A DNA stretch of 51,803 nt from IMG/VR virus record IMGVR_UViG_3300001567_000010, positions 1 through 51,803 of that record; one strand, given 5' to 3'. The notes below the pieces were generated by a model. It searched no databases and was not told where the DNA came from. It saw nothing but the letters and a program-made list of their open reading frames with translations. Each line of letters opens with the position of its first letter. The first letter of the stretch is position 1. The translations under genes and the position numbers were made by a program. Origin of the DNA: a virus. Below are positions 27,359 to 50,431 of this stretch, one piece after another.

Positions 27359-28729
27359 ATGATAGAAGCATTCCAGAATATCCTGACAACCGATCCGGTG
27401 CACGCGGACGTCATGAACACGAAGATCGTCGCGCCGGGGAACAAACTGGTCGACTTCGTGAAACGCCCCTATTCCGGGGATGTCATCGGGTTTGAGTGGG
27501 ACGCATCTTCCACCAGTCCGGTGCTCCGCAGGATCGACGGAGGAGGCCGATATATCACCAGCCTGCCGAGTGACTACTTCGACAAGCATCTGATCTTCGA
27601 CCGCCGCCGCTGCACCCGGGACCGGACGACCGGGGAGATAACGCTCTCTCCCAATGGCCGGGGGGACGGGCTTGTGCTCGACGGCACCGCCGGCGATGTG
27701 CTGGTCCGGAAGCCGAAGTACTACCACAAGTTCGAGTGCAAATACCCCTACTACCGGCACTGGTTCTCCGCAGAGCCGCATGTCGGGTTCACTCTGTGGC
27801 CGGCGTTCATGCAGCGCGGCGACCCGCTGGATCCGACGGCAACGGACTACCTGTATTCCGGGGCTTACGAGGCGTACGGGTATGTTGACGCGGGCGCCTT
27901 CAAACTCGGGAGCGCTGCCGGGAAGAAGCCGGTGACGGGGAACTCGGGAGACACTGCTGAACATGCCGACTGGGATCCGTATCCCGGACTGCTCGACGCC
28001 AACGTGCCTGACATCACCCTTGGGAGAGAGGGCGAGTTCACCATCACCATCGCGGAGAAGTGCGCGAGCCTCGTCGGCACCGGGTTCGGGATCACGAACT
28101 TCTGGGACTACGTCGGCGACCAACTCCTGATGTATCTGGAGTTCGGGACGTTCGACATCCAGACTGCGCTCGGAAAAGGGATCGTTGACCTGGCGAGCGG
28201 CACCAAGTTTGCCGGAAAGTACACCGGTGTGGACAGTATCGACTCCCGGCTGGCAGAGAACGGCACCGGAGTGGGGTCCGGAACGAACGGGCAGACCCCG
28301 GTCACCTGGAGAGGGATCGAGAACCCCTTCGGCAACGTCTGGAAGTTCATCATCGGATGCAACTTCAAGGCCGGCGGCATCTTCCGCACCATCAAGCGCG
28401 ATGGATCGGGGACTCTCGCAGGGACAATGGCCGATGGGTCCTATGAAGCAGGATCGGGTGTCCCGCAGGTGAACGGCTATGTCTCGGGGCTGCTGGAAGA
28501 CGAACTCGGCGGCATGGCTGCCATGCCGTCGGTGGTTAACGGATCGGACAGCACGTATCTGTGCGACTATTGGTACGCGCCAACCGGAGACAGAATCCTG
28601 CTTGCGGGGGGCTATTGGTCTTATGCGCGGACTGCGGGTCCCGGCTGTCGGTCTGCGACTAACGCGGTCTCGGTTTCCGGTCGCAACCTTGGCGCCCGCG
28701 TCGAGTTCCGGCCCCCTGAAGAGGCATAA
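27359..28729 (+). CDS. DGR target: tail fibre/receptor-binding protein with C-terminal C-type-lectin fold
   Basis: YSGAYEA, WRGIENPFGNVWKF, LAGGYW...NLGARVEF; 3' end matches the TR. Confidence 0.9.
   Translation: MIEAFQNILTTDPVHADVMNTKIVAPGNKLVDFVKRPYSGDVIGFEWDASSTSPVLRRIDGGGRYITSLPSDYFDKHLIFDRRRCTRDRTTGEITLSPNGRGDGLVLDGTAGDVLVRKPKYYHKFECKYPYYRHWFSAEPHVGFTLWPAFMQRGDPLDPTATDYLYSGAYEAYGYVDAGAFKLGSAAGKKPVTGNSGDTAEHADWDPYPGLLDANVPDITLGREGEFTITIAEKCASLVGTGFGITNFWDYVGDQLLMYLEFGTFDIQTALGKGIVDLASGTKFAGKYTGVDSIDSRLAENGTGVGSGTNGQTPVTWRGIENPFGNVWKFIIGCNFKAGGIFRTIKRDGSGTLAGTMADGSYEAGSGVPQVNGYVSGLLEDELGGMAAMPSVVNGSDSTYLCDYWYAPTGDRILLAGGYWSYARTAGPGCRSATNAVSVSGRNLGARVEFRPPEEA
28596..28705 (+). repeat. DGR variable repeat (VR)
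   Basis: 110-bp ungapped match to 29097-29206 (offset 501), 20 mismatches all opposite TR adenines. Confidence 0.97.
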
Positions 28730-28743
28730 GGAGGTGTGATAAG

Positions 28744-29034
28744 ACGCACCCCAAATTTTCTGATTTCGCGACGGAGGAGAAACCTCTCGACGGAAAGAAG
28801 ATGGGTATTGACGATGTGCTGAACCAGGAGGTTCTGATTCTCGATTTCAAGCGAGGTCAAAGCAAGTTCAAGGAGAACGCGCGGTATACGACCGTGCAGT
28901 TCGAGATGGGTGGGGAGACGCACGTCCTGTTCACCGGGTCTGAGGTCATCTCTGATCAACTGGAACGGTATAAAGAGCATCTGCCGTTTGTCGCGACCAT
29001 TCGGAAAATCAACCGGTACTATACGCTAACTTGA
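28744..29034 (+). CDS. DGR accessory protein, non-Avd-like (first ATG 28801; probable ACG start at 28744)
   Basis: Sits between target and TR; frame stays open upstream as HPKFSDFATEEKPLDGKK behind SD GGAGGTG. Confidence 0.7.
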   Translation, partial: THPKFSDFATEEKPLDGKKMGIDDVLNQEVLILDFKRGQSKFKENARYTTVQFEMGGETHVLFTGSEVISDQLERYKEHLPFVATIRKINRYYTLT

Positions 29035-29096
29035 AGGGGGAGGGGAGCAAACAATGATACTGGTTCGTGCGCGACACTGTGGGGGCCTTCCTCTTC

Positions 29097-29206
29097 TCCT
29101 GCTTGCAGGGGGCAATTGGAATAATGCGCGGAATGCAGGTCCCGGCTATCGGAATGCGAATAACACGGTCTCGAATTCCAATCGCAACAATGGCACCCAC
29201 GTCGAG
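29097..29206 (+). ncRNA. DGR template repeat (TR), within the likely template RNA 29035-29361
   Basis: 9 AAT plus 2 AAC codons in the target frame; invariant non-A positions vs the VR. Confidence 0.95.
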
Positions 29207-29361
29207 CTCAGGTTCCGACTGAGCGGCCCTGAACAGCGCACTGACCCGAGTCCCGACGATGTCGGGGCCAAAGACAAAACCCGTCCACAGGAGAGTGCTG
29301 GTACTCGCGTCAGCGCGGCGGAACGCTCTCTCCTGTCGGCAGGGCTGCGGGGGCTTGCCTC

Positions 29362-30426
29362 ATGAAGCGCCGCGGCGACCTCTTCTCGACCCTGGTTTCG
29401 ATTGAGAACCTCCGGAGAGCGCACCAGAGCGCCCGCAAAGGCAAGACACACTACTACGCGGTGAAACTGGTTGATGCGGACCCGGATTACTATCTCCGCG
29501 AATTACAGGAGGAACTCGTCAGCGGAACGTTCGCGACCTCGCCCTACACGACGAAAGTCATCTACGAGCCGAAGGAGAGGACGATCTACAAACTCCCGTA
29601 CTATCCCGATCGGATCATCCACCATGCGGTCATGCAGGTGATGCAGCCGATCTGGGATCGGCAGTTCATTCACGACCTCTATTCGGCAATTCCGGGTAAG
29701 GGCTTGCATGCGGGCTCGTATCGGCTCCGCCGGTTCCTGAAGGACGCCGACCGGACCCGGTACTGCCTGAAATTCGACATCTCGAAGTTCTACCCCTCGA
29801 TCCGGCCGGACAAGATGCTCGATATCGTGCAGCGGACGGTGAAAGACCGGAGCGTGCTCGAGGTCCTCCGGGACGTGATCTACAGCTCGCCGAACGCCGG
29901 GGTGCCGATCGGGAACTACCTCTCGCAGTATTTCTCGAACTTGTACTTAACGCCGTTCGATCACTGGCTGAAGGAGAAGATGCGGGCGCGGTACTACATC
30001 CGGTACTGCGATGACGGCGTCATCCTGCACCAGGACAAAGGATGGCTGCAGAACCTCATGCATAAGATCGAGGAGTTCTTCGACACGCTCGGGCTCCGGT
30101 TGAACCCGAAAACGTCGATCTTCCCGGTCGACCGCTGCGGGGTAGATTTCCTTGGGTATCGCACGTTCAGGACGCACACGATCCTCCGGAAATCCTCGGC
30201 TCGCCGGCTGAAGAAGAAGGTCCGCGAGATCGAGCAGAACTACCAGACGATGAGCCCGGACGCGATTCTGGGTTCTCTGGGGGCATATCATGGGTGGTTA
30301 AAGCATTGTGACTGTCACAACTTCGGGCGGAAGTATCTCTACGAGAACCCCGCGATTCGTACAGCAGTGAAACACGCAGTAACTACAGGAGGAATGAAAT
30401 GGCCAGGCTGGTTGGCAGCACCGTAG
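29362..30426 (+). CDS. DGR reverse transcriptase
   Basis: KERTIY, PDRIIHHA, KFDISKFYPSI, GVPIGNYLSQ, YIRYCDD, GVDFLGY; 354 aa, no maturase/endonuclease domain. Confidence 0.97.
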   Translation: MKRRGDLFSTLVSIENLRRAHQSARKGKTHYYAVKLVDADPDYYLRELQEELVSGTFATSPYTTKVIYEPKERTIYKLPYYPDRIIHHAVMQVMQPIWDRQFIHDLYSAIPGKGLHAGSYRLRRFLKDADRTRYCLKFDISKFYPSIRPDKMLDIVQRTVKDRSVLEVLRDVIYSSPNAGVPIGNYLSQYFSNLYLTPFDHWLKEKMRARYYIRYCDDGVILHQDKGWLQNLMHKIEEFFDTLGLRLNPKTSIFPVDRCGVDFLGYRTFRTHTILRKSSARRLKKKVREIEQNYQTMSPDAILGSLGAYHGWLKHCDCHNFGRKYLYENPAIRTAVKHAVTTGGMKWPGWLAAP

Positions 30427-31391: not shown

Positions 31392-31802
31392 TCATCCCTC
31401 CTTCAAAATATTCTTGAATCGCAGAATCTTATCCTGGATCTCATCCCCTCGCGGGTCTAACAACCAAGGCCGCCGGGAAACATATGTTCCCCAAAAATCC
31501 GTCAATTCATGAACCCGGTGCAGTGATATCCGTTCAATGCGGGGAGAACTCAGAAGTCTCGTATATTCGCGGAATTCTTCTTTACTAATCCCCGCTTTCA
31601 ATGCTGCATTCAGTTGTAATTCCCGTGCTTCTTTAATCCTGTCTTTTGGAGCCATCATAACCATGAGTGGCCATTTATCTCTGGGCAAATCCGTCAAAAC
31701 ATCAAAAGAATAATGGATAAACAATTCCATCTCTTCTTTTGTGATCTCCAATTTGCGGAGCATTTCAATTTCAGCTTCTTCAAGTTGCCCATATTTCCCC
31801 AT
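31392..31802 (-). CDS. Hypothetical protein, AT-rich
   Basis: 136-aa ORF visibly much lower in GC than the genome. Confidence 0.6.
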   Translation of the reverse strand: MGKYGQLEEAEIEMLRKLEITKEEMELFIHYSFDVLTDLPRDKWPLMVMMAPKDRIKEARELQLNAALKAGISKEEFREYTRLLSSPRIERISLHRVHELTDFWGTYVSRRPWLLDPRGDEIQDKILRFKNILKEG

Positions 31803-31837
31803 TTAATCATCCCTCATCCTGTGAGACCCCGATCCGG

Positions 31838-32098
31838 TCACGGCTCTACCCGGACCACGCTCACGACCTTGCCGACGTGACTACCATGTACGTTGAGCCG
31901 GGCCTGTTTTCCCGCTGCCCGGGGAACCCCTTCGATGACCTCGCCAGCGACCACGATCTTAACCCGTTTCCCGGCCCATTCCCACGGTAGCACCACCCGG
32001 CCAGTATACTCAGTCGCCCGGGACACACGCCGCTCCAGCAGCGCATACCCCCGGATCTGATGCCCGTTGACCTGATAAACGTCCGGGACGGGCGTCAC
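31838..32098 (-). CDS. Tandem DUF2080/AbrB-like small DNA-binding protein
   Basis: GRVVLPWEWAGKRVKIV and ARLNVHGSHVGKVVSV repeats. Confidence 0.6.
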   Translation of the reverse strand: MTPVPDVYQVNGHQIRGYALLERRVSRATEYTGRVVLPWEWAGKRVKIVVAGEVIEGVPRAAGKQARLNVHGSHVGKVVSVVRVEP

Positions 32099-32742
32099 TC
32101 CTCACCCCCGTTGCAGACATCCCATGCTCGGCTGAACTCCTTGTCGCGGAAGAGGTCCGCAAGCCCGCCGACCTGTTTGAGTCGGAGGACCTCGTCGGCG
32201 TCCATGCCGAGGTTCTTGGCGATCCAGGTATCCGATTTGCCGAGCCGGTGCAGTTCGGCGACGAGATCGCTCATGAGGTCGACGTCGTGCACCCCTCTTG
32301 CCCGGTTATGCCGTACCGTCGATGCTATCCTCTCCCCGAGATCCTTGGTGATCACGACGACTGGGAGATACTCATGCAGCCGCTTACGGATCTCAAGCAC
32401 CTCCTTGCCGACGCGGCTCCGGTGGAACCCATCGACGACGATGTATTGGCCCGACTCCTCATCAAGATAGGTCACGATCGGCTGCGTGTAGCCATCTTTG
32501 ATGACCGAGAGGGCGAGGAGGCGCATCTCGGGTGGAGCGACCTTGTTAGGGTTGTAGTTGTTAGCAATCACCCCGCTGCTCTTAACCCAGAGGACCAGGT
32601 CCACCGGGTCGCCGAACGGGCTCATCTGATGCAGGGCCCTCCGGATCTCGTTGAGCACGGTGACCCGGTCATCGATCTGGAGATCTGCGATACCGCCGAA
32701 CGCGGTCCGCGCCGACTCTATTATTTCACATACCGTGGTCAT
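32095..32742 (-). CDS. ibrB: IbrB-like ParB/Srx-domain protein
   Basis: ANNYNPNKVAPPEMRLL, GYTQPIV, VVDGFHR, STVRHNRARGVH, LGMDADEVLRL. Confidence 0.88.
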   Translation of the reverse strand: MTTVCEIIESARTAFGGIADLQIDDRVTVLNEIRRALHQMSPFGDPVDLVLWVKSSGVIANNYNPNKVAPPEMRLLALSVIKDGYTQPIVTYLDEESGQYIVVDGFHRSRVGKEVLEIRKRLHEYLPVVVITKDLGERIASTVRHNRARGVHDVDLMSDLVAELHRLGKSDTWIAKNLGMDADEVLRLKQVGGLADLFRDKEFSRAWDVCNGGEE

Positions 32743-32743
32743 G

Positions 32744-34060
32744 TTACAGGCTCCTGTATTTCTCAATAATTTCCTTAATCCGCTCGCTCTGCTTCTTCGT
32801 TGGGCCGAATCCCATCCATTTGCAGGTGTGATCATTCTTCAGGATACAATACGTCATCCGCTTCCAGGAGGGGATATCGATCGTCGATTTGACGTCATCG
32901 GTATCGTCCGGGATCTCTGCGAACCGGACATCTGTGCGGCCATGCTTGGACCGGACCGACGGACCTACCTTCTCGATAGGATAACGGCACGCCTCCAGTT
33001 CGGCGATCGCCTCGTCTGACACCACGCCCCCCTTCTCTTTCCAGAACTTGATCGACGTCTCAAACTTTTCGAGATAGTGGTTCCGGGTCTCCTGCGGGAG
33101 CGTCGAGAGCAAGAACTTGCAGTAACTCTCCCAGGTGTGTCCCTTGGGGAGTTTGATCTCCCGGTATCCCAGGGCCTTTGTGTCCCCGTAGATCGCCGCG
33201 AAGTTGGCGCCCTGCACCCTGCCGACGACCTTGACCCATACCTCCGGGTCGATCACGCGGTAGAGATTCAGGGTCGCCCTCCCCCATATGTTGTAGGGGC
33301 TCGCTACCCGCATCTGCGAGAGAGTAAGCCCGGCCTTGTAGTAGAGGTCGTAGAGGCGGTTGTAGTCATAGCCTCGCCGGCCGTTCGCGACCCATACATC
33401 CTCGACCTCCCAATCATAGATCGGGTGGCCGACGTAGTAGTTCTCACCGGCCTGCCGGGTCCAGTGCTGCCCACGGTAGAGGGTCTTGCGGTCGTTCGTG
33501 ATCGCTGCATACCGGTTCAGGGACTCGTTCGCCCGGATTCCCAGGAGGACGATCGACCGGCCGGGGTGCGTCCGGGCATACCACTTGCCGAACTCTTCGT
33601 AGAGCGCCTCGTCGGTCATGGCGAGCCGGTAGAAGTCAGGGACGTTGTCATGCTCCAAGCTGATCACATACGGCTGCTCCGGCAGCGGCCGGACCCAGAT
33701 ATCCCGCTCTGCAGGATTCCACGGCACCCAGGAGAGTTGGTGCATCGAGACCGAGCAGTTCACGGTCATCGGGACGCAGAACCAGTATGGCTCGATATCG
33801 TCGATATTAGCCTCGTACATCCGGGTCACGTACTCGGTCGTCATGGAGTACTGCGCCTCGTAGTCCTCGTGGAAGACCGCGATCCGCTGCCCGCACCCGT
33901 GCCGGCGCTTGTATTCCAGCACGGCATTGAGGAGCAGCCCGCTGTCCTTCCCGCCGGAGAACGACACACAGATGTTATCGAAGTCCGAGAAGACCAGATC
34001 AAGCCGTTTCTCCAGGGCTTCATCCACCCCGCACGCGAGGAAGATCTTTTTTCCGCTCAT
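32744..34060 (-). CDS. ibrA: IbrA-like PAPS-reductase/PP-loop protein (DUF3440-like C-terminus)
   Basis: VSFSGGKDSG, GIRANESLNRY, HPIYDW, YNRLYDLYYKAG, MRVASP, GANF, CILKNDHTC. Confidence 0.88.
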   Translation of the reverse strand: MSGKKIFLACGVDEALEKRLDLVFSDFDNICVSFSGGKDSGLLLNAVLEYKRRHGCGQRIAVFHEDYEAQYSMTTEYVTRMYEANIDDIEPYWFCVPMTVNCSVSMHQLSWVPWNPAERDIWVRPLPEQPYVISLEHDNVPDFYRLAMTDEALYEEFGKWYARTHPGRSIVLLGIRANESLNRYAAITNDRKTLYRGQHWTRQAGENYYVGHPIYDWEVEDVWVANGRRGYDYNRLYDLYYKAGLTLSQMRVASPYNIWGRATLNLYRVIDPEVWVKVVGRVQGANFAAIYGDTKALGYREIKLPKGHTWESYCKFLLSTLPQETRNHYLEKFETSIKFWKEKGGVVSDEAIAELEACRYPIEKVGPSVRSKHGRTDVRFAEIPDDTDDVKSTIDIPSWKRMTYCILKNDHTCKWMGFGPTKKQSERIKEIIEKYRSL

Positions 34061-35496
34061 AATACCTTCACCAGATCCTTCAGTTTTGCCTTATCATCCT
34101 TCACCGCGTCCACCTCGCGCCGGAACGAGGCCACGACGTTCTCTTTTCGGGAGAGTGCCTCCCAGATCTTCTCATCGATACCTGAGGAGAGGATATCGGT
34201 ATACGTCACCTCGTGTTCCTGCCCCATCCGGTGGCACCGGTCCTCGGCCTGCAGGCGCTCGGAGTACTTGAATGAGTTCGAGTAGAACACGACGTGCCGT
34301 GCCTCGTTCAGGGTCAGCCCGTGGCCGCCGCAGGACTGCGTCGAGACGAAGAACCGCGCCGGACCTCGGAACTTCTCGACCTCCTGCTGCCGGGCCGGGA
34401 CCGGGGTGTCGCCAGTGAATACCGCGACGGAGTCGGGACCGTACTCCTCCCGCAGCGCCGCCACGATCCGGGCGATGTCGTAACGATACTTCGCCCACAC
34501 GATAACCTTCTCGTCGTCCGGGATCTCGTGGACCACGTCAAGCAGGGCCTCCAGCCGCCCCTCGCGGAACGTCAGGAACTGATACTCGTCGTCAGGGCTC
34601 AGCTCCCCATCCCGGCACAGCCGACGGTTCCAAAATCCCGATACGATCTGCTGCAGCACGCCGTAGAGCCGGAAGATCGTGTAGGGTTTGAAGTCGTCGT
34701 AGTCGATCATGAGGAGGATCTCCTCCTTCGCCGCCTCGTATGCGTCCCGCTGCTCCCCGGTCAGGCTGCAGTACCGGGTTTGGTACTTCTTGCCCGGCAG
34801 AGACATGGACTCTTCTTTCGTCACCTGGTAGACGTAGGGGGCAATCTTCGCCGCGAGTTGCTCGGTGTCATGTGTGGCGACGATGAGGCCGGGGTACCGC
34901 TCGGAGTACTCGAGGTGGTTCCGGGCGAACGTGTACCACGACCGGTAGCCGAGGATCCTTGGCGACAGGAACTTCATCTGCGCGAAGAGATCCTCGACCC
35001 CCTGGCTGATCGGGGTCCCCGTCAGCACGAACCGGTAACGGGCTTTATCGGCGAGCAAGGTTGCCCGGGCGGTCCGGATCGATTTATGGCCTTTGATGTA
35101 CGAGCTCTCATCCAGGATCACGAACGTCCGGTCGGTGATGATCGAGTGGAGAGCAAACGTGACTCGGTCCGAGGAGGAGAGCGACTCCAGACCGACGACG
35201 ATCCACCGGGCGGCCCGCGGCACGGTCTCGGCCGTGGTCCGGTCGTCGAACACGTAGACGTCCCGACAATCCGTGTGCTTGTAAATCTCCAGGCGCACGG
35301 TCTCCTTGAGCGAGACCGGGCAGAACCAGACGACCCGATCGATCTTGCGCGCCCGCTGCCGGACGATCTCGATGGCCGTCCTGGTCTTGCCGGTCCCCAT
35401 CTCCATGAATAACCCGCCGACGCGGGTCGGCTTGAGCTTCCGGACCGCCGCCAGCTGCCAGGGCATAAGGTCAGTCGTCGTCGCGAAGGTCTGCAT
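34057..35496 (-). CDS. SNF2-family helicase/ATPase
   Basis: MEMGTGKT, ILDES, LTGTP, GHGLTL, QAEDRCHRMGQ. Confidence 0.93.
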   Translation of the reverse strand: MQTFATTTDLMPWQLAAVRKLKPTRVGGLFMEMGTGKTRTAIEIVRQRARKIDRVVWFCPVSLKETVRLEIYKHTDCRDVYVFDDRTTAETVPRAARWIVVGLESLSSSDRVTFALHSIITDRTFVILDESSYIKGHKSIRTARATLLADKARYRFVLTGTPISQGVEDLFAQMKFLSPRILGYRSWYTFARNHLEYSERYPGLIVATHDTEQLAAKIAPYVYQVTKEESMSLPGKKYQTRYCSLTGEQRDAYEAAKEEILLMIDYDDFKPYTIFRLYGVLQQIVSGFWNRRLCRDGELSPDDEYQFLTFREGRLEALLDVVHEIPDDEKVIVWAKYRYDIARIVAALREEYGPDSVAVFTGDTPVPARQQEVEKFRGPARFFVSTQSCGGHGLTLNEARHVVFYSNSFKYSERLQAEDRCHRMGQEHEVTYTDILSSGIDEKIWEALSRKENVVASFRREVDAVKDDKAKLKDLVKVL

Positions 35497-36610
35497 CGAT
35501 CTCTCCGGGTTTCGTCTGCTCTTTCGGCTCGCCCTTGATCGGCTCCGGCCCCCCCACGGGTTTGACGACGAGGGCCGCCTCCCTTGTCGCCCGTGCCGCC
35601 TCGATGAGCCCCAGAGCGCCGGGCGAGAGCTGGAACCCGAACTCGTCCACGAGGTCGAGGATCGCCTCATACTGCGCCGCCGGCACGACCACGTTCGGCT
35701 TCGACCACCGGCTGCCGGCGATCTTGCGAGCAGCCGCGTAGATCGCCTCGTTGTCCCGCTCCCACTGGATGCTGAACCAGCCGGCATAGTCTCCGCCGGT
35801 GCGTTGCGTCACCCACCGAACGTACTCAGGTTCGTAGGAGCCCGAGACGGCCATCTCCCGGGCGACCTCATCGAAGACCTGGATGACAAACCCTGCCCGG
35901 AGGAGCAGGTTCCCGATCTCCCCTGCCCGGTCCGCAGGCGTGCCGGCAAACTTACCGATCTGCCGCGCCCATAGAGCGCCGTTCCACCGGAACCCGCGCC
36001 CCTTGACGATCTCCCGCAGGGTATCGTTCCGCTCCGGGTAGATCACCTCGACCGTGCTCTCCCGGATCCGGATCTGCACAGGGATCTCAGAGACCGGTGT
36101 CTCCGGCCGGACCGTCGCCTCGGCGAGAGCCTCCTCTGCGGAAACGGCGCCAGCAGCTTCCCGGAGGTCGAGGAGCCCCTTGTATCGCTTCGCGACGAGG
36201 GTCATGATCTCCCGGTCAGAGGGGTTCCGGCCGTTCTCGATCCACCAGACCGCCGAGGGCTCACGCTGGATTGACTCGACGGCCTGCTGTGCGAGGACCG
36301 TATCGACATCCTCGCGGACGGTCCGCCGCTGCAGGACGCCGTCGAGCACTTCGAGATACTTCTTCCGGATCGTGAGCGCCCAGGCGACCTGCTTATCGGT
36401 GCCGACGAGGGCCGGGAGTTCCTGCTCCGCCGCCTCCGCTGCGGCCGCGACGCGCTCGGCCTCCCGCTTCGCCTCCAGTTGCGCCTTGTAGCAGTCAGGG
36501 CAGAGTTCCTGCTCTTTGTTCTTGAGGATCCATTCCCGAGTCCGGGTCGGCCCCGTCAGGCGGACGGTGCCCGTATGCCCGCAGGCATACGTGACCGAGT
36601 ATTTCGCCAT
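35471..36610 (-). CDS. Conserved hypothetical protein: Zn-binding N-terminus (CGH...CPDC) plus two HARP-like repeats
   Basis: VIYPERNDTLREIVKGRGFRWNGALW and IQWERDNEAIYAAARKIAGSRWSKPNVVVP. Confidence 0.7.
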   Translation of the reverse strand: MAKYSVTYACGHTGTVRLTGPTRTREWILKNKEQELCPDCYKAQLEAKREAERVAAAAEAAEQELPALVGTDKQVAWALTIRKKYLEVLDGVLQRRTVREDVDTVLAQQAVESIQREPSAVWWIENGRNPSDREIMTLVAKRYKGLLDLREAAGAVSAEEALAEATVRPETPVSEIPVQIRIRESTVEVIYPERNDTLREIVKGRGFRWNGALWARQIGKFAGTPADRAGEIGNLLLRAGFVIQVFDEVAREMAVSGSYEPEYVRWVTQRTGGDYAGWFSIQWERDNEAIYAAARKIAGSRWSKPNVVVPAAQYEAILDLVDEFGFQLSPGALGLIEAARATREAALVVKPVGGPEPIKGEPKEQTKPGEIDADLRDDD

Positions 36611-36614
36611 CCCA

Positions 36615-37064
36615 TCAGTCCCTCCAGACACGCACCACGAACGCCTTGCCAAGCGCCTCTACAGTGGCCCGCTTGCCGCCGTAGCGGACGAGGTCATCCA
36701 CGATCAGCTGAGCATCCGAGCGGGACGGGTAGAGGGACGGCCGGCCGTCATCTCTCGCGGTGATCTCAGTGCCGGGGGCCTCTACCGGGACCGCACCGCC
36801 GGTCGCAGCCTCGTAGACATCGCCGATCACGCGCACATAGACGACGAAGTGGTGCCGGTCCGCGGGCTTGCCGGGGTTAGTGGTCGCGGGGATTATGGCG
36901 ACCTCGTGGGCGGCACCGAACAGAACGCGCGTCGCCACTCGCTGCAGGAGCGCGGGGATCTCGTCCCGCACGCAGTTCCCCATGCAGGAGTAGGTTCCGG
37001 CTGCGGTCTCGATCGTCAGCGGGTAACCCCAGCCGACGGCCTTTGGAAGGGTTTTAGGAGTCAT
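36615..37064 (-). CDS. Hypothetical protein
   Basis: Coupled to neighbours in the leftward operon. Confidence 0.6.
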   Translation of the reverse strand: MTPKTLPKAVGWGYPLTIETAAGTYSCMGNCVRDEIPALLQRVATRVLFGAAHEVAIIPATTNPGKPADRHHFVVYVRVIGDVYEAATGGAVPVEAPGTEITARDDGRPSLYPSRSDAQLIVDDLVRYGGKRATVEALGKAFVVRVWRD

Positions 37065-37405
37065 CTCCGAGACCCCCGAGGGGTCCGCGGTGCCGGCCTT
37101 ACCGCCCCCGTCTTTTTAAGGTCCTCGATCAAGTCGTTGACCACCGGGCCCACAGCCCGATGGACAGGCCAGAATCGTATCTTGCCATCTGTGTCCTGGC
37201 GAGTGAGACAGTATCCCCCGCGGATCAGGATCTGGATCGTGTAGTCGCCGACCTCCACCTCGGGGTCGGTGACGGCGTCACCTTCGCTGGATCCCGTTGC
37301 ATGGTACCCGCAAATCTCCAGGTATTTAACGAGTCCCGGGATTTTTTCGTTCGCCGCATCGGCGCCCCGTATGAGTGCGTCATATACATCAAGTTCCATT
37401 CTCAC
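37061..37405 (-). CDS. Hypothetical protein
   Basis: First gene after the repeated promoter 37399-37444. Confidence 0.6.
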   Translation of the reverse strand: MRMELDVYDALIRGADAANEKIPGLVKYLEICGYHATGSSEGDAVTDPEVEVGDYTIQILIRGGYCLTRQDTDGKIRFWPVHRAVGPVVNDLIEDLKKTGAVRPAPRTPRGSRR

Positions 37406-37444
37406 ACCTCTATACCTATATTAGACCCACTAGTATTTATAATT
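37399..37444 (-). promoter_or_regulatory. Early promoter/RBS block, copy 1
   Basis: 46 bp identical to 37975-38020; TTATAAATA box and GAGGTGTGAG SD on the minus strand. Confidence 0.85.
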
Positions 37445-37451
37445 GCTGATG

Positions 37452-37973
37452 TTACTCCTGAAAATTAGGGATTGTGAAGGCCACCACAGGCCTTCCGAGG
37501 CGCTCATGATCTCGGTTCACGCGCTCCAGGCCATCCTTGATGGCGTCCCACTCATCGCGGCTGAGATCTGATGCGATCTTGGCGGCCTCTTGGGCCCCTT
37601 CCGGCGAAAATGACGCAGCCCTCCCGGTCGCTACGTTAATTCCCGCGTTGAGGCGGTGGCTAGACGACCTAATATGCCTCAGCCCGCGCCCATGTTCGTG
37701 GATAAATTCGTACGTAATGGTCGTCGCGAATGGGGCCAGAGCGATAATCTCGCGAGCGCGCCGAAGATTCTCCGCGTTTACGGGGAGGCCAGCGAGTTTG
37801 CAGTAGGCCGCCGGCCACTGCGACGAACCGTCGACCCGGAACTGGACATCGTCGGTGTCGATCTCCAGGTAGATATCCGCCAGGGTCCAGCGGTCCTCAT
37901 ACCCGCTGCTGGTGATTTTCAACGATCCCTTTTTCCGCACATCGAGTTCCAGGTCTTCTATCTGAGTAGTCAT
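37452..37973 (-). CDS. Hypothetical protein
   Basis: Directly after promoter copy 2. Confidence 0.6.
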   Translation of the reverse strand: MTTQIEDLELDVRKKGSLKITSSGYEDRWTLADIYLEIDTDDVQFRVDGSSQWPAAYCKLAGLPVNAENLRRAREIIALAPFATTITYEFIHEHGRGLRHIRSSSHRLNAGINVATGRAASFSPEGAQEAAKIASDLSRDEWDAIKDGLERVNRDHERLGRPVVAFTIPNFQE

Positions 37974-37974
37974 G

Positions 37975-38020
37975 TTCTCACACCTCTATACCTATATTAG
38001 ACCCACTAGTATTTATAATT
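37975..38020 (-). promoter_or_regulatory. Early promoter/RBS block, copy 2
   Basis: Identical to 37399-37444. Confidence 0.85.
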
Positions 38021-38486: not shown

Positions 38487-38490
38487 CGGT

Positions 38491-38523
38491 AATTATATAT
38501 ACTAGTGGGTCTAATATGGGTAT
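38491..38523 (+). promoter_or_regulatory. Early promoter, copy 3 (opposite orientation)
   Basis: AATTATATATACTAGTGGGTCTAATATGGGTAT, 2 mismatches in 33 vs the reverse complement of copies 1/2. Confidence 0.8.
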
Positions 38524-39744: not shown

Positions 39745-40608
39745 ATGACAAGCGGTAGCACACCCCTCACCCATTTCTCCTGCTTCAGCGGCATCGGCGG
39801 GATTGACCTAGCCGCCGAGTGGGCGGGGTTTCAAACGCTCGGGCAGGTAGAACTTAAAGAATACCCGTATGCAGTGCTCCGTCAGCACTGGCCAGACGTA
39901 CTAAAATGGAGAGATATCAAGGATGTCACAAGTGGATCTATCAGGAGAGCCGGTATTGCACAACCCCCGACCGTATTATCCGGGGGTTTCCCATGCCAGC
40001 CGTTCTCTTCTGCCGGCAACCAGAGAGGCACGGTTGATGACCGCTATCTCTGGCCGGAAATGCTTAGAGTCGTGCAGGAATGTAGGCCCGCTTGGATTGT
40101 TGGAGAGAATGTTGATGGGTTCGTCGGAATGGCACTCGACGAATCACTTGCTGGTTTGGAGCGTGCAGGTTACGCCTGCCGGGCGTTCGTATTTCCGGCT
40201 GAAGCAGTTGGAGCCCCGCACGAAAGATATCGGTGCTTTATTGTTGCCCACCGTCTGTGCAGCGGACAAGAGCGGGCACGGGTATCAATACGACAACGGC
40301 GACCGGACAAAGATCCGGCTGACGCTCCCGGGCTATGTGAGGATGATCCCGACAATGCACGCGAATGCACATACTGGGCCTGGAAGGCGGGGTCTAGGAG
40401 GTGTGAACATACAGACCGCGCTGAAAGAATCAACTGGTATGAAGCTGCAACCCGCTTTTGCGGAGTGGATGATGGGGTTTCCAATCGGGTGGACCGAATT
40501 GAGGCGCTAGGGAATGCAGTTATGCCGCAACACATCTCCCCCATCATGAATGCAATTGCAGCGATCGAGGAACAAAATTACAGCCTGAAAGGGCTGGTAG
40601 AAAAATGA
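39745..40608 (+). CDS. C5-cytosine DNA methyltransferase, alpha-like chain (motifs I-VIII and X)
   Basis: FSGIGG, GGFPCQPFS, GENV, PHERYRCFIV, RIEALGNAVMP; no motif IX. Confidence 0.92.
   Translation: MTSGSTPLTHFSCFSGIGGIDLAAEWAGFQTLGQVELKEYPYAVLRQHWPDVLKWRDIKDVTSGSIRRAGIAQPPTVLSGGFPCQPFSSAGNQRGTVDDRYLWPEMLRVVQECRPAWIVGENVDGFVGMALDESLAGLERAGYACRAFVFPAEAVGAPHERYRCFIVAHRLCSGQERARVSIRQRRPDKDPADAPGLCEDDPDNARECTYWAWKAGSRRCEHTDRAERINWYEAATRFCGVDDGVSNRVDRIEALGNAVMPQHISPIMNAIAAIEEQNYSLKGLVEK
40037..40510 (+). CDS. C5-methyltransferase beta-like chain in an overlapping frame (motif IX); alternative start 39923
   Basis: Nested ORF ending LQPAFAEWMMGFPIGWTEL (motif IX-like). Confidence 0.75.
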   Translation: MTAISGRKCLESCRNVGPLGLLERMLMGSSEWHSTNHLLVWSVQVTPAGRSYFRLKQLEPRTKDIGALLLPTVCAADKSGHGYQYDNGDRTKIRLTLPGYVRMIPTMHANAHTGPGRRGLGGVNIQTALKESTGMKLQPAFAEWMMGFPIGWTELRR

Positions 40609-41320: not shown

Positions 41321-42499
41321 ATGGCAATATCGGTCACGGATGCGGAGAAATCTATCAGTAACGCCCTCGCAGATGGGCGGATCACCAACCCCGACGCGGC
41401 GGCGCTCCGGGACTTTTTATCCGACGCTCGCGCCACGAACGGCATATCCCCCAACCGGATCAACCTCTACGCCTCGTCGCTCTGCCGCATGGCCCGGTTC
41501 CTGCCCGGGGGCCTTATCGCAGCGTCGGCGGCAGACCTCTACGCGGGGGTCGCGGATCTCCGGGGGCCGACCGCCTACAAGGGACGCCCCTACAAGCAAA
41601 ACACCCTTCAGAGCACGATCACGATCGTCCGGCTGTTCTATCGGTGGGCCGCCGAGAATGGATACACCGAGATCCCGCAGCCGCGCATCGACCGGCTCAA
41701 GCCGCCGCACCGGGACCGGATGACCAAGACGGCGGGCCAGATGCTCACCCCCGAGGATGTGCAGGCGATCGCCGGGGCGTGCCGCAGGTCATCCGACCGG
41801 GCGATCCTCTGGATGCTCTACGAGGGGGGGTTCCGGGTCGGGGAGCTGATCGAGATGACGTGGGGGCAGGTGACGTTCGACCAGTACGGCGTCGTGGTGA
41901 ACGTCGACGAGAAGACTGACCGGCCTCGATATGTCCGCCTCATCATGGCCGCAAAACCCCTCGCAGCATGGCGGGCGGATTACTACTTCGACCCGACCCC
42001 CGAGACCCCCGTCTTCCTCGACACGAGGTGCCGCCCGATCACCCGCGCCGGGGTTACCCAGATGCTCCGGCGGGCGGCGCGTCGGGCCGAGGTCGAGAAG
42101 CACATCACCGCGCATCTATTCCGGCACTCGCGGATCACGCATCTGATCAAGGAAGGGGTGAATGAGTCGGTGATCAAATTGATGATGTGGGGCAATATTA
42201 ACACCGATATGTTCGCCACCTACGCGCACCTCACCGGCGTCGATATCGACGCGGAGATGCTCCGGACCTACGGGATCGCCCCGGAGCCGAAGCAGCGGCA
42301 CCAAAAACTCGCCCCGATCCAGTGCCCCAAATGCGGACAGGTGTGGCCCGCGGGCTGGCGGGTCTGTGAGTGCGGGGAGATCCTCGACGAGGACTTGAAG
42401 AAGACTGCGCTTGATAAGGAAAAATACGCACAGGAAAGTGGCGATTATCAGAAACTCCTCGCACAGCTCCGGCGGGACCTGCGCATTGAAGATAGATAG
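41321..42499 (+). CDS. int: Tyrosine recombinase/integrase with C-terminal Zn ribbon
   Basis: GGFRVGEL (R), EKTDRPR (K), HLFRHSR (HxxR), TYAHL (Y); CPKC..CEC. Confidence 0.95.
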   Translation: MAISVTDAEKSISNALADGRITNPDAAALRDFLSDARATNGISPNRINLYASSLCRMARFLPGGLIAASAADLYAGVADLRGPTAYKGRPYKQNTLQSTITIVRLFYRWAAENGYTEIPQPRIDRLKPPHRDRMTKTAGQMLTPEDVQAIAGACRRSSDRAILWMLYEGGFRVGELIEMTWGQVTFDQYGVVVNVDEKTDRPRYVRLIMAAKPLAAWRADYYFDPTPETPVFLDTRCRPITRAGVTQMLRRAARRAEVEKHITAHLFRHSRITHLIKEGVNESVIKLMMWGNINTDMFATYAHLTGVDIDAEMLRTYGIAPEPKQRHQKLAPIQCPKCGQVWPAGWRVCECGEILDEDLKKTALDKEKYAQESGDYQKLLAQLRRDLRIEDR

Positions 42500-43929: not shown

Positions 43930-44114
43930 TGGCCGGTCCCTGGCAAATCATGAGTCAGGTCATCAACGACCGTAAGATGTACATCGCCGGCCGGCAGAAG
44001 AACCCCGCAGAGCCCCTGCACGGCGGCAACGTCGAATACTACGGAGGGTATTCCGATAACCGCGAATCGGTCACGGCATTGGTCGAGGACCTCAATGCCG
44101 GGAGGCGGTGCTGA
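43929..44114 (+). CDS. Small hypothetical protein
   Basis: TGATG coupling both sides. Confidence 0.55.
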   Translation: MAGPWQIMSQVINDRKMYIAGRQKNPAEPLHGGNVEYYGGYSDNRESVTALVEDLNAGRRC

Positions 44115-45400
44115 TGGACACAACAACGATCTCGGTATCAGAGGTTGTGTTCCGCGAGGATCTCTACCCTCGTATCGAGCACGACCCTCGCCTCGTGCAG
44201 AAGTACTCCGAGGATCTCGAAGTGCTCCCGCCGATCGAGGTCAACCAGCACCATGAACTGATCGACGGTTGGCACCGTTGGACGGCATACCGGAAGATCG
44301 GCGCTGAAACCATACCCGTAATCATCACGCAGACAAAGAGTGATGTCGAGTTTCTCTCGCTCGCAATCGAGCGGAACGCCAAGCACGGGCAGCAATTAAC
44401 CAACACAGATAAAAGGAAGATGGCGATCCGCCTCTTCAACAGCGGCGCGGGTGTGTCTGATAAGACATACCTCGCAAAGATCCTCTCTGTCTCGCAGAAG
44501 ACGATCGACCGCTACCTCAAAGAGACAGAAGACCGGATCAAGGTAGACCGCGACGCGAAGATTTTCGGCATGTACCTCTCCGGCCACACGCAACAAGAGA
44601 TCGCGGATGCGGTCGGTGTAACTCAGAAGACCGTCGACAACGGGTTGGAATCTTTAGTAAATTTAGACAGGTGTCCGAAATTACTAAAGATCGCCGCGCT
44701 CTTCGAGGATGATTTCAAGGCACCTTTATACAACGTGTGGCGGTTCACCAAGTCCTCAAACAACGTCGCGCACTTCGGGGAGTCCGAACAGACGATCGTC
44801 GAAAACCTCCTCTATCTCTACACCGCCCCGTTCGATCTGGTGGTCGATCCGTTTGCCGGCGGAGGCTCCACAATCGACATCTGCAAGAAACGTCTCCGGC
44901 GGGTCTGGGCGTCTGACAGGAAACCGATACCCGAGCGAGAAAACGACATCCGCAAACACGACATTGTAACGGACGGAATACCGCCGTTAAACAACAGGTG
45001 GTCTGACGTATCATTAACCTACCTCGACCCGCCGTACTGGAAGCAGGCGGAGGGGCAGTATTCGAACGACGCAGAAGACCTGGCAAACCAGAGCATAGAG
45101 GACTTCACACGCAACCTCTCGAACCTCGTCATCGAGGTCGGGAAGCGGCAGTCGAAAGGTGTGATCGCACTCCTCATCCAACCGACGCAGTGGAGATCAC
45201 CGGATAGGAAGTTCACGGATCATGTTTTTGATGTCATCCGTGCCGTGCAGGACTCCGGTGTCAACCTCGAACTCGTGAACCGCGTATCGTGTCCGTACAA
45301 CAGCGAACAGTATAACCCGCAGATGGTGAACGTGGCAAAGGACGAGAAACTCCTCCTCGTGCTCACGCGGGAACTGATCGTCTGGAGGTGCGGGGTATGA
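44114..45400 (+). CDS. ParB-N/HTH fused to amino (N4/N6) DNA methyltransferase
   Basis: LIDGWHR (ParB), TQQEIADAVGV (HTH), VVDPFAGGGST (motif I), LDPPYW (motif IV). Confidence 0.85.
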   Translation: MDTTTISVSEVVFREDLYPRIEHDPRLVQKYSEDLEVLPPIEVNQHHELIDGWHRWTAYRKIGAETIPVIITQTKSDVEFLSLAIERNAKHGQQLTNTDKRKMAIRLFNSGAGVSDKTYLAKILSVSQKTIDRYLKETEDRIKVDRDAKIFGMYLSGHTQQEIADAVGVTQKTVDNGLESLVNLDRCPKLLKIAALFEDDFKAPLYNVWRFTKSSNNVAHFGESEQTIVENLLYLYTAPFDLVVDPFAGGGSTIDICKKRLRRVWASDRKPIPERENDIRKHDIVTDGIPPLNNRWSDVSLTYLDPPYWKQAEGQYSNDAEDLANQSIEDFTRNLSNLVIEVGKRQSKGVIALLIQPTQWRSPDRKFTDHVFDVIRAVQDSGVNLELVNRVSCPYNSEQYNPQMVNVAKDEKLLLVLTRELIVWRCGV

Positions 45401-47297: not shown

Positions 47298-47557
47298 TGG
47301 CATCGCATATCGTCTCTCAGATGATCTCGACACACGACGAGTTCATCGGGGCGATCTACCGGGCGTGTGGATCGCGCCCGTTTACTGCCGCAGAACTCCG
47401 GCGATGTGGCGTCGTTGAGCCGGTAGGATGCAGTCTGCAGAAACTCCACGCCCGCGGCTGCACCGAGCGGGAGAAGGGGGTCCTCCGGGGCCCTTGTGTC
47501 TGGCGACTCTCGCCGGAGGTCGTGCAACATTACGAGGCCAAGGGGGTGCAGGCATGA
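47297..47557 (+). CDS. Winged-helix-like small protein
   Basis: FTAAEL...SLQKLHARG...WRLS. Confidence 0.5.
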   Translation: MASHIVSQMISTHDEFIGAIYRACGSRPFTAAELRRCGVVEPVGCSLQKLHARGCTEREKGVLRGPCVWRLSPEVVQHYEAKGVQA

Positions 47558-47694
47558 GCAAGATCGTCCGATCCCCCTGCCCGTGGTGCGAGGGGGAGAA
47601 AGCGAAGTACAAACAGGGCGAGCAGGCCCTCCGGTGCACACTGTGCAAGAGGGAGCGGCCTGCTCCCGCATATCTATCCGGGGTGAGCGCGTGA
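47554..47694 (+). CDS. Small Zn-ribbon protein
   Basis: CPWC...CTLC. Confidence 0.5.
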   Translation: MSKIVRSPCPWCEGEKAKYKQGEQALRCTLCKRERPAPAYLSGVSA

Positions 47695-48746
47695 TCATCG
47701 TCATTGCAGACGTCGATGAGATCGCGGCACTGCTCGGGCTCTCGACCGAGCGGCACCCGACCATCATCCGGCCGCAGACGAGCGGCCCCTGCGTGCACTA
47801 CGATCCCGACGGGGTGTATTACTCGCCCCCGGGCGGCGAGCACCAGGACGAGCCTCCGGTCTGCGCCTACCCCTATCCCTGCGATGAGGGGTGCCCGCAC
47901 CTGGACGACCCTGCAATCCTCTGCCCGGTCAAGGACGCCTGCTATGCGATGCGAGATCTCGCCCGCCTCCGGTCCGCCTGCGAGGAGCGGGACCGTGAGA
48001 TTGGGATGGATGCCGCCCCAGTTCCGCAGTCGGACTACGTGCTCGCCCCCCGGGATCCTCGGGGGTCCAGCGGCGACGCAGAGGTGCCGGAGTTCCCGGC
48101 CCTCGAACCGGACGAGGTCGCACCCTACAAGGTCGTGGCGAAGAAAGGCCGGGCGCCGGGGCATGTGCAGGAGTGGACCGCCGAAGAAGATGCGGCGCTG
48201 CTCGGCGCGGCGAACCGGCATGAAGCCCTCTCCCTGTATCACGAGCGGGTGCCGAACTCGGAGCGGTCGGACGCGGCGATACAGCGACGATGGTATGACA
48301 TCCGAGAGCCGCGGGAGCGGGCTCGCGCGGCACGACGAGACGAGTGGTCCGCCGAAGAAGATGCGGCACTCATCCAGGCTAGTGCAGTCGCGGACGTCGT
48401 CGGCCAGTTCCGGGAAGCGTTCCCGGACTCGGAGCGGTCAGACAAGGCCATCACGAGCCGGTTCTACCGGGTCCGGACTCGTGCCGACCGCCTGCACGAG
48501 GCGGCACCCCCGGCCGCTCCCGTCGAGGCCGTGCCTCCGGTCACCCGGGAGAGACCGGATCTGATCGCCCCCCTGAGCGCGCCAATCGCCCCCGGTGACC
48601 GCGTCGCCCTGGTCGATGACCCCGGCCTCGTCGGTACTGCGGTTATCGTCAACGTCCGCAGCAAATTCGCGTCGGTGGAGTTCCCCGACGACGATGGCCC
48701 GGCCCGGGTCTACCCTCTCAGTGCCCTGCGGCGGGTGATCGTGTGA
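47691..48746 (+). CDS. Protein with Cys-rich region, two Myb/SANT-like repeats and a C-terminal KOW/SH3-like domain
   Basis: EWTAEEDAALL...RSDAAIQRRW and EWSAEEDAALI...RSDKAITSRF, 57 aa apart. Confidence 0.7.
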   Translation: MIIVIADVDEIAALLGLSTERHPTIIRPQTSGPCVHYDPDGVYYSPPGGEHQDEPPVCAYPYPCDEGCPHLDDPAILCPVKDACYAMRDLARLRSACEERDREIGMDAAPVPQSDYVLAPRDPRGSSGDAEVPEFPALEPDEVAPYKVVAKKGRAPGHVQEWTAEEDAALLGAANRHEALSLYHERVPNSERSDAAIQRRWYDIREPRERARAARRDEWSAEEDAALIQASAVADVVGQFREAFPDSERSDKAITSRFYRVRTRADRLHEAAPPAAPVEAVPPVTRERPDLIAPLSAPIAPGDRVALVDDPGLVGTAVIVNVRSKFASVEFPDDDGPARVYPLSALRRVIV

Positions 48747-50032: not shown

Positions 50033-50431
50033 ATGTTCCTGAACTGCGGGCAGGCCACCCCCTCAAAAGATGCGGTCCGCCTGGTGATCTGGGACGGCGC
50101 CATCGAGTACGTGTTCAGCCTGACGATCCCGGACGTCTCTGCCCTGCTCCAGGAGCGAGCGGAGTCGATCCCCGTCGGGCGGCAGTTCGGGCTCCTCGAA
50201 AACAAGGCATACGGCAGGGCGCGGCTCACCAACCCCTGCGCGGATGGGCAGCGGAAAGGGGTTGCGTTCTGGTTCCCCTGCTTCCCGGGCCGGTTGTTTT
50301 CAGTCTCGCGCGTGGGGCTCGCCGGGGTTGCCCGGAGTGTCACCCGGGGCGCGGGGGACCACTGGCTGGATGCCGTGGTCTCGGAGATGATCCCGGACCC
50401 GGGGCCGGTGCGGATGGGGGTGCGGGCGTGA
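50033..50431 (+). CDS. Hypothetical protein
   Basis: SD GGAGGTG; coupled to the next gene. Confidence 0.55.
   Translation: MFLNCGQATPSKDAVRLVIWDGAIEYVFSLTIPDVSALLQERAESIPVGRQFGLLENKAYGRARLTNPCADGQRKGVAFWFPCFPGRLFSVSRVGLAGVARSVTRGAGDHWLDAVVSEMIPDPGPVRMGVRA

Follow-up and report, generated by a model that had tools for sequence, protein, structure and literature searches.

The stretch analysed here (hereafter the window) is a full 51.8-kb virus record of IMG/VR, IMGVR_UViG_3300001567_000010, 51,803 nucleotides in length. At 32095-36610 its minus strand carries a cassette of four co-directional, translationally coupled open reading frames (ORFs), which encode a HARP-like protein (HARPl), a stand-alone SNF2 motor, the PP-loop protein IbrA and the ParB/Srx-fold protein IbrB. 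It represents the HARPl subtype of SNF2-IbrA-IbrB, a module with a very wide distribution among phages, and its carrier is a temperate phage. Tentatively, and with somewhat less than even confidence, we propose that the cassette uses ATP to modify or process DNA in the interest of the phage itself, perhaps as protection from restriction or from DNA-sensing defences of the host.

A sequence-only reading of this DNA had described four tightly coupled leftward genes, and the junctions bear this out. HARPl (35471-36610, 379 aa) and SNF2 (34057-35496, 479 aa) overlap by 26 nucleotides (nt), SNF2 and IbrA (32744-34060, 438 aa) overlap by the 4 nt of an ATGA, and IbrA is separated from IbrB (32095-32742, 215 aa) by a gap of 1 nt. 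The start chosen for HARPl (MAKY...) is backed by 22 aligned homologues and that of SNF2 (MQTF...) by alignment as well; the raw SNF2 ORF has a long Arg-rich N-terminal extension without conservation. The motifs that had been quoted from the translations (SGGKDS, C-x7-C, DGFHR, HNRARG and the Zn-binding residues) are all present and conserved, and the catalytic residues of SNF2, IbrA and IbrB are all conserved.

The co-occurrence of the four genes was surveyed in the neighbourhoods of HARPl homologues, a test that had been set in advance as one that could refute the cassette and that it passed. In 4/4 sampled distant loci (34-42% identity in HARPl), HARPl is followed by SNF2, zero to two extra genes, IbrA and IbrB, with a GNAT gene separating IbrA from IbrB at 3/4 of these loci, and the cultured Clostridium scindens phage phiCs5676-1 carries HARPl, SNF2, IbrA and IbrB in a row after its endolysin. 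The three-gene core extends further: of 46 IMG/VR loci that were found through IbrA, 25 have SNF2, IbrA and IbrB side by side in this order, which also occurs in Lactobacillus phage CR28 and in CHPC877, a Streptococcus thermophilus phage of the genus Moineauvirus. Dairy phages of this genus are virulent. The IbrA-IbrB pair is also found in Mycobacterium phage Gaia, where it lies among the replication genes. The search of genome contigs for related loci with HARPl alone yielded no relative, and megablast of the cassette against isolated phages gave no match. The earlier proposal of an undescribed new system thus gives way to one subtype of a very widespread cassette, whose genes are annotated in many isolated phages; new points are that a HARPl subtype can be defined, that it is coupled to SNF2, that an acidic tail is common to the proteins upstream of SNF2, that HARPl has an AcrIF23-like core and that cultivable phages carry the cassette.

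The genes around this core vary. In relatives, the same slot holds variable accessory enzymes, GNAT or a DNA methylase-like gene after IbrB, as is typical of modification pathways. In the closest relative, locus L003, IbrB is directly followed by a gene for a PD-(D/E)XK nuclease. The cassette usually lies beside the endolysin, either co-directional and after it (CR28, phiCs5676-1 and L050) or convergent with it (L006, L023, L040 and L046). The window cassette is convergent with the late operon and in this seems to resemble the endolysin-convergent loci. Some cassettes of the HARPl type have an extra gene of 291-348 aa, at a conserved position and without a Pfam family, between SNF2 and IbrA (L049 10978-12024 and L050 11175-12050); L049 also has a second, longer SNF2 (847 aa) just upstream, which is preceded by a 142-aa protein matching the N-terminus of HARPl.

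The families of IbrA, SNF2 and IbrB are assigned at levels far above chance. IbrA is composed of a PP-loop ATP pyrophosphatase domain of the phosphoadenosine phosphosulfate (PAPS) reductase fold and a 180-residue DUF3440. It matches DUF3440 (PF11922) at E=3.9e-78 (261.8 bits, cut-off 25), phrog_2302 over its full length at E=3.2e-101, and PAPS_reduct (PF01507) partially, over residues 169-241 (31.1 bits, cut-off 22.5). The PP-loop SGGKDS (residues 35-40) is invariant in 21 homologues. Cys95, Cys405 and Cys413 are kept in 18-20 of these 21, the latter two forming the C-x7-C (18/21 and 19/21, respectively), and position 403, a Thr in the window, is a Cys in 17/21. By profile, the nearest solved relatives are CysD (the best, E=1.1e-5), FAD synthase, CysH, LarE and TtuA, which are adenylyl-transfer or adenylate-then-substitute enzymes. 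Three to four cysteines are conserved, and sulfur chemistry is neither demonstrated nor excluded. The literature yielded no biochemical study of IbrA/IbrB and no functional study of the phage pair, in agreement with the earlier remark that IbrAB biochemistry is essentially unstudied.

Two more specific identities for IbrA were considered and rejected. CysH is a stand-alone protein of approximately 240 aa and is defined by an ECGLH-type motif with the catalytic Cys; the IbrA translation lacks an ECGLH-type C-terminal catalytic motif, its profile match to CysH reaches E=0.01 over approximately 40 residues, and the CysH structures matched have 215-261 residues, too short for the DUF3440 of this 438-aa protein. 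With CysD as the best solved match, IbrA was not retained as a CysH sulfur enzyme. As a DndC equivalog it scores far below the cut-off of NCBIfam TIGR03183 (24.7 against 290.4 bits), over residues 166-240 only, the same short stretch that matches the PADLOC DndC model at E=4.7e-8. A large cluster of near-identical gut-phage contigs (L008-L024 and L028-L032, e.g., L016 7941-9269) carries IbrA alone, without detectable IbrB or SNF2, beside a GIY-YIG protein and a GH108 lysin.

IbrB matches the ParB-like family phrog_2159 at E=2.7e-66. The window protein has no Pfam match at E<=0.01, including ParB_N, while its homologues carry PF02195, mostly flagged as weak. The motifs YNPN, DG[FY]HR and RHNRARG are invariant in 18 homologues, and the nearest solved relative is the ParB-family protein Noc (7OL9, E=4.8e-4). 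Noc is a DNA clamp dependent on cytidine triphosphate (CTP). At loci L026 (9277-10281) and L036 (9300-10301), the IbrB frame is approximately 334 aa long, with HNH_3/NUMOD homing-endonuclease domains before the ParB part; this could be a homing endonuclease joined to ibrB or lodged at its beginning, or else an artefact of ORF calling that merged two frames.

The SNF2 protein is a minimal, stand-alone motor of 479 aa without an accessory domain. Both halves are well supported, with SNF2-rel_dom (PF00176) at E=1.4e-20 (74 bits, cut-off 24.9) and Helicase_C (PF00271) at E=3.7e-13 (50.1 bits, cut-off 23.5), as is the whole by phrog_62 (E=3e-101), and in the alignment motor motifs I, II, III and VI (GTGKT, DESS, TGTP and QAEDRxHRxGQ) are intact and conserved. 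In PADLOC-DB v2, SNF2 matches ZorD (E=4.6e-36), DpdE (E=9.5e-26) and DrmD through helicase cores only, IbrA gives the weak partial DndC match, and IbrB and HARPl have no match.

HARPl itself proved to be a large family with a composite architecture: a Zn ribbon (residues 1-40), a helical core similar to AcrIF23 (approximately 55-165), two alpha/beta repeats (approximately 170-258 and 262-350) and an acidic C-terminal tail (..EIDADLRDDD). The ribbon ligands C10, H12, C37 and C40 (CxH...CxxC) are invariant or kept in at least 90% of sequences. A word-indexed search recovered 35 full-length homologues, and an exhaustive profile search retrieved 1,182, 3,929 and 8,664 cluster representatives at E<=1e-30, 1e-10 and 1e-3, respectively; nearly all of the best 150 matches are 360-430 aa long. 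In AlphaFold (AF2) models, the predicted local distance difference test (pLDDT) score is 85.5 for full-length HARPl and rises to 92.8 when the C-terminal half is modelled; the acidic tail is disordered.

The helical core is homologous to residues 53-142 of the anti-CRISPR AcrIF23 (PDB 7FIA) at a profile E of 8.5e-6, and it has a GxEKQxxWAxxIR motif in common with the N-terminus of AcrIE7. AcrIF23 binds the Cas2/3 helicase-nuclease through a loop, residues 17-28, that was defined by mutagenesis (PMC9270243). This binding loop lies outside the region matched by HARPl.

The description of the repeats as HARP-like stands in part. Pfam gave HARPl no family at E<=0.01, hence no match to the HARP profile (PF07443), and BLASTP detected no similarity between repeat 1 and repeat 2; the fold matches, weak as they are, speak for the description. 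For both repeats, the solved structures that match best are the N-terminal DRD of archaeal XPB, the N-domain of T4 UvsW and the C-terminal domain of p52, with Z scores of 5.2-5.6 and root-mean-square deviations (rmsd) of 1.7-3.6 over 53-78 residues, which are weak values; for XPB DRD and the UvsW N-domain alone, the rmsd is 1.7-2.4 over 53-61 residues. Individual superpositions gave Z 5.6 and rmsd 2.0 over 55 residues for S. tokodaii XPB, Z 5.5 and rmsd 1.7 over 53 residues for A. fulgidus XPB, and Z 5.6 and rmsd 2.2 over 61 residues for T4 UvsW, and the top Foldseek match is again XPB, at E ~0.01. Mason et al. (PNAS, 2014) reportedly placed HARP, XPB DRD, UvsW-N and MutS domain I in one fold or structural class. 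The term "HARP-like" is valid only to this extent: what the repeats match best, and weakly, are small domains at the N-termini of SF2 helicases.

The tie between HARPl and SNF2 is visible in the identities of the proteins to those of the window. SNF2 is 50-74% identical at the loci with a closer HARPl (L003 and L049-L052), approximately 39% at those with a more divergent HARPl (L023 and L046) and 22-34% at loci without HARPl, so that HARPl appears to co-vary with its own SNF2. IbrA identity is unlinked to HARPl, being 27-33% in L049-L052 and 45-51% in most other loci, the majority of which lack HARPl. As SNF2 identity tracks HARPl but IbrA identity does not, HARPl and SNF2 seem to travel as a unit that recombines with varied IbrA/IbrB lineages. 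In addition, a natural fusion was found by the exhaustive profile search on a single 3.8-kb metagenome contig: protein P0152 (locus L054, 115-2790, 891 aa) carries the HARPl double repeat twice in tandem, joined to an SNF2 with 52% identity to the one in the window (hhalign E=2.5e-33). A search for longer, fused HARPl homologues found none, which is weak evidence. Among the ESM Atlas models nearest to HARPl outside its family, several represent phage SNF2 helicases, although the template-modelling (TM) scores of 0.41-0.47 are weak. A predicted HARPl-SNF2 complex scored 0.33, the best of three controls being 0.00, with a partner pLDDT of at least 76 and a contact agreement between runs of at least 0%; of 80 solved complexes 58 reach the mark applied, as do 2 of 110 mismatched pairs, and scores of 0.60 or less contain only seven of the 80 solved complexes, yet both of the passing mismatches. 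This prediction lends weak support to binding.

Because of the co-variation of HARPl with SNF2 and the one natural repeat-SNF2 fusion, the pair reads as a split motor of the SMARCAL1/UvsW/XPB kind coupled to IbrA/IbrB. The analogy to a HARP-plus-SNF2 protein, first drawn from the translations, has in this way gained independent support from the weak fold matches, the co-variation and the fusion. At most SNF2-IbrA-IbrB loci, the HARPl slot is filled by a single small protein or a pair of them, unrelated in sequence, and those upstream of SNF2 end in a similar acidic tail, approximately [VI]-x-[VI]-x-[DE]-[DE]-L-[KR]-[DR]. By hhalign, their bodies have no homology to HARPl and only the tail aligns (12 columns, probability 8.8%). 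The tail pattern is present in 11 of 20 such proteins against 50 of 929 background C-termini, a comparison whose p-value is untrustworthy because the pattern was defined post hoc and the loci are related. This acidic tail may be a docking peptide.

These features suggest how the cassette could work. HARPl would be the substrate-recognition subunit of SNF2, in a split version of SMARCAL1, UvsW or XPB, where the SF2 motor is guided by a small domain that binds DNA of a specific structure, and it may dock on its partner through its body, its conserved acidic C-terminal tail or both. The SNF2 motor would translocate on duplex DNA or open it and so expose the target. IbrB, as a nucleotide-binding protein of the ParB/Srx fold, would bind DNA and position IbrA, whose PP-loop domain would adenylate the target group, a base carbonyl or a backbone phosphate. 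A nucleophile would then displace adenosine monophosphate (AMP), and its delivery could fall to a metal or Fe-S centre bound by the three to four conserved cysteines of IbrA. We infer both the nature of the modification and its substrate, and the same steps could define a broader, motor-coupled class of DNA modification. In such a class, an adaptor of the DRD/HARP class and SNF2 would open the duplex, the PP-loop enzyme would adenylate it, a sulfur, amino or acyl group would replace AMP, and the GNAT, methylase and glycosyltransferase of relatives would decorate the product, allowing phages of many phyla to evade restriction or DNA-sensing immunity; we regard this generalization as less likely than not.

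A role in the service of the phage is what we prefer, without holding it firmly, over regulation or remodelling, defence of a lysogen, protein-level anti-defence and sulfur metabolism. It is favoured because the cassette is found in the Moineauvirus CHPC877 and among the replication genes of Gaia, because no effector nuclease was identified in the window cassette and neither IbrB nor HARPl has a PADLOC family, and because the cassette has a promoter block (described below) in common with the operon running towards an orphan C5 methylase; the three DNA methylases of the phage were also counted in its favour. Several points weigh against it. The substrate could be RNA or tRNA, since tRNA and small molecules are what the majority of characterised PP-loop enzymes modify; a protein is another candidate, as Srx acts on one. 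Since IbrA stands alone in the gut-phage cluster, it would be an enzyme without a strict need for the motor. A position between the lysis genes and the integrase also suits lysogenic-conversion genes. The fold scores of HARPl (Z below 6) are too low to prove kinship, SMARCAL1 HARP structures are in none of its fold-match lists, and the support from the predicted complex goes no further than weak. Finally, the only published phenotype of IbrA/IbrB, to our knowledge, is the activation of prophage eib gene expression in E. coli ECOR-9. This phenotype suits a regulator or remodeller, in which HARPl-SNF2 would remodel forks, R-loops or nucleoid-protein-bound DNA and IbrA/IbrB would form a nucleotide-dependent switch for phage expression or replication. 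The place of the pair among the Gaia replication genes is in line with this, as are SMARCAL1, UvsW and XPB, the best fold analogues of HARPl plus SNF2, all of them remodellers, and the kinship of IbrB with a CTP-dependent clamp. However, the invariant PP-loop together with the conserved Asp/Glu/Arg and Cys residues argues for real catalysis, and the accessory GNAT and methylase-like genes better suit a chemical pathway than a switch; we consider a regulatory or remodelling role unlikely.

The sequence-only reading had offered a prophage-borne defence as the alternative to a virus-serving modification, and of the two the virus-serving role fits better. A defence or superinfection exclusion mounted from the lysogen, dependent on modification or driven by the motor, would shield the host from other phages, and we judge it quite improbable, even though the cassette lies in an accessory region between the tail and retroelement genes and the integrase with its own repeated promoter, its SNF2 resembles the helicase modules of ZorD and DpdE, and in the closest relative a PD-(D/E)XK nuclease directly follows IbrB. 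The window cassette contains no identified nuclease or other effector, the database of defence families gives nothing for IbrB or HARPl and a weak DndC-like match for IbrA, the same cassette is found in virulent dairy phages and in replication modules, and the small flanking ORFs are not conserved. Homology of the HARPl core to AcrIF23 and the motif in common with AcrIE7 raise another idea, that HARPl or the whole set blocks a motor of the host by binding to it, be it an SF2 helicase-nuclease such as Cas3 or one that serves restriction or defence, with IbrA/IbrB as passengers or as modifiers of a host factor; the target of AcrIF23 is itself a helicase-nuclease, and the acidic tail could mimic DNA. 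Against this, the loop with which AcrIF23 binds Cas2/3 is not part of the matched region, HARPl is strictly linked to its own SNF2 and fused to it in one case, and the family is, in our judgement, far larger and more conserved than typical anti-CRISPRs, which makes the idea very unlikely. The least probable account by far, to which we give almost no credence, is that IbrA is a true PAPS reductase, an auxiliary metabolic gene that boosts the sulfur assimilation of the host. Papers of 2024 and 2026 annotate the gene as phosphoadenosine phosphosulfate reductase or under host metabolism, and IbrA and CysH do have the PP-loop fold in common. The partial PAPS_reduct match, the absence of the ECGLH-type motif, a DUF3440 for which the matched CysH structures are too short and the closer profile match to CysD all speak against it, as does the obligate pairing of IbrA with a ParB-like protein and an SNF2 motor.

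The late genes of the window run rightward from 1 to approximately 31.2 kb and include the terminase, an SPP1-type portal, the capsid, baseplate J, a tail protein and a reverse transcriptase; a leftward block spans 31392-37973, and rightward genes restart at 38073. The reverse transcriptase lies within 27359-30426 (Pfam RVT_1, E=1.8e-18; phrog_1423, E=2.5e-116), just 3' of the tail protein phrog_5302, and the two together are consistent with a diversity-generating retroelement (DGR). To the right, an orphan C5 DNA methylase (39745-40608) is encoded further downstream in the rightward operon, followed by a tyrosine integrase (41321-42499) and a ParB-N6-methylase fusion with ParB_N/HTH/N6_N4_Mtase domains (44108-45400), all in the rightward direction, and by an N6_Mtase (50428-51150). 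Three DNA methyltransferase genes in one 52-kb phage represent a heavy investment in DNA modification. Other features are a 1,008-aa Prim-Pol protein at the left end (1812-4838) and a 416-aa protein at 47496-48746 with a sub-threshold Myb-like DNA-binding match (E=4.3e-5).

The portal (8593-10089) is 42-43% identical to those of the Clostridioides difficile myophages phiCDKH02, phiMMP03, phiC2 and CDMH1, and the ESM Atlas clusters of HARPl belong to Bacillota and Uroviricota. The portal similarity and these clusters indicate a bacterial host, probably a high-GC member of Bacillota, and the earlier suggestion of an archaeal virus was set aside as unlikely. No cysteine desulfurase is encoded: PF00266 has no match in the whole record, as had been noted from the translations, and all 14 control genomes were positive. 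The host IscS could substitute, so that this absence does not exclude sulfur chemistry.

The leftward operon exceeds the four genes of the cassette, as small unique ORFs are coupled to it on both sides. Its first gene, g37061 (37061-37399, minus strand), has no Pfam match and a marginal one to phrog_28763 (E=0.0022), and its stop overlaps by 4 nt the start of g36615 (36615-37064, minus strand, 149 aa), which has no Pfam or PHROG match and ends 4 nt before the start of HARPl. Downstream, g31838 (31838-32098, minus strand, 86 aa) overlaps the IbrB stop by the 4 nt of a GTGA and likewise has no Pfam or PHROG match, and g31392 (31392-31802, minus strand, 136 aa), the last ORF of the leftward block, lies 35 nt past g31838 and gives only a sub-threshold SinI-like match. 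None of these four ORFs has a homologue in any related locus.

The repeated promoter block that had been noticed in the sequence was found again: two identical direct copies and one inverted copy that is 94% complementary. These 46-nt, AT-rich promoter/Shine-Dalgarno blocks head two leftward transcription units and one rightward unit. The copy at 37975-38020 (minus strand) is directly upstream of g37452, that at 37399-37444 (minus strand, 100% identical) heads the cassette operon, and the inverted copy at 38490-38523 faces the rightward operon. Read on the minus strand, the block at 37399-37444 comprises an AT-rich, TATA-like element, a GAGGTG Shine-Dalgarno sequence and the probable ATG of g37061 at 37399. 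Scans for sigma-70 promoters and terminators gave nothing above shuffled sequences. Since the block is common to both leftward units and the rightward one, it suggests that the cassette and the rightward operon leading to the C5 methylase are regulated together.

These results bear on how such genes are annotated. Few phage genes are mislabelled as auxiliary metabolic genes of sulfur metabolism as often as IbrA, and because it travels with a ParB-like partner, an SNF2 motor and an adaptor that would recognise DNA structure, nucleic-acid chemistry is indicated for it instead. If the product is a new DNA modification, an enzyme class would be added to the biology of phage anti-restriction, and possibly a tool for marking DNA. 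Isolated carriers are at hand in C. scindens phiCs5676-1, with the full set of four genes, and in S. thermophilus CHPC877 and Lactobacillus CR28, with the short version.

Among known systems, those that act on DNA with PP-loop or SNF2 proteins invite comparison. Dnd systems include the ParB-like DndB. The PAPS-reductase-fold PP-loop enzymes DndC, SspD and BrxP act on DNA with ATPase partners (PMC12839542). Compared to DndABCDE, SspABCD and the BrxP of type 4 BREX, the window IbrA has DUF3440 and not the C-terminal region of DndC, the phage carries no cysteine desulfurase of its own, and no equivalents of DndD/E or SspB/C and no restriction partner were seen in it. Phosphorothioation of the Dnd/Ssp type, which had been among the chemistries first proposed, is not indicated. 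The Dpd 7-deazaguanine system combines a ParB-like ATPase and SNF2-like helicases in a DNA-modification cluster, and the window SNF2 resembles DpdE in the PADLOC models; however, genes for a transglycosylase (DpdA/TGT) and for preQ0 synthesis are absent from the window, the resemblance to DpdE is confined to the helicase core, and against the NCBIfam DpdE model SNF2 scores 14.6 bits where the cut-off is 500. AcrIF23 and AcrIE7 resemble HARPl in its core and motif, respectively, and compared to the stand-alone, 161-residue AcrIF23, HARPl adds the Zn ribbon, the two alpha/beta repeats and the acidic tail.

The closest likenesses are with the IbrA/IbrB pair and with the helicases that carry HARP-class domains. 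E. coli IbrA/IbrB (the ibrAB island of ECOR-9, with the K-12 paralogues YbdN/YbdM) and the phage pair phrog_2302 and phrog_2159 belong to the same families as the window proteins and stand in the same adjacent order: PAPS_reduct plus DUF3440 with an invariant PP-loop, then ParB/Srx with DG[FY]HR and RHNRARG. Unlike the E. coli pair, that of the window is preceded by a dedicated minimal SNF2 and a 379-aa adaptor. SMARCAL1, a HARP-HARP-SNF2 annealing helicase, T4 UvsW and archaeal/eukaryotic XPB, with its N-terminal DRD, associate a small alpha/beta recognition domain with an SF2/SNF2 motor, as HARPl, in which the domain would be present twice, may do with its SNF2; for membership of the HARP/XPB-DRD/UvsW-N class, the Z of 5.2-5.6 of both repeats falls short of the level that would exclude a common arrangement. 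These three proteins are remodellers and not modifiers. In the window, the recognition module is a separate polypeptide, and its motor is coupled to a PP-loop enzyme that is present in none of those remodellers.

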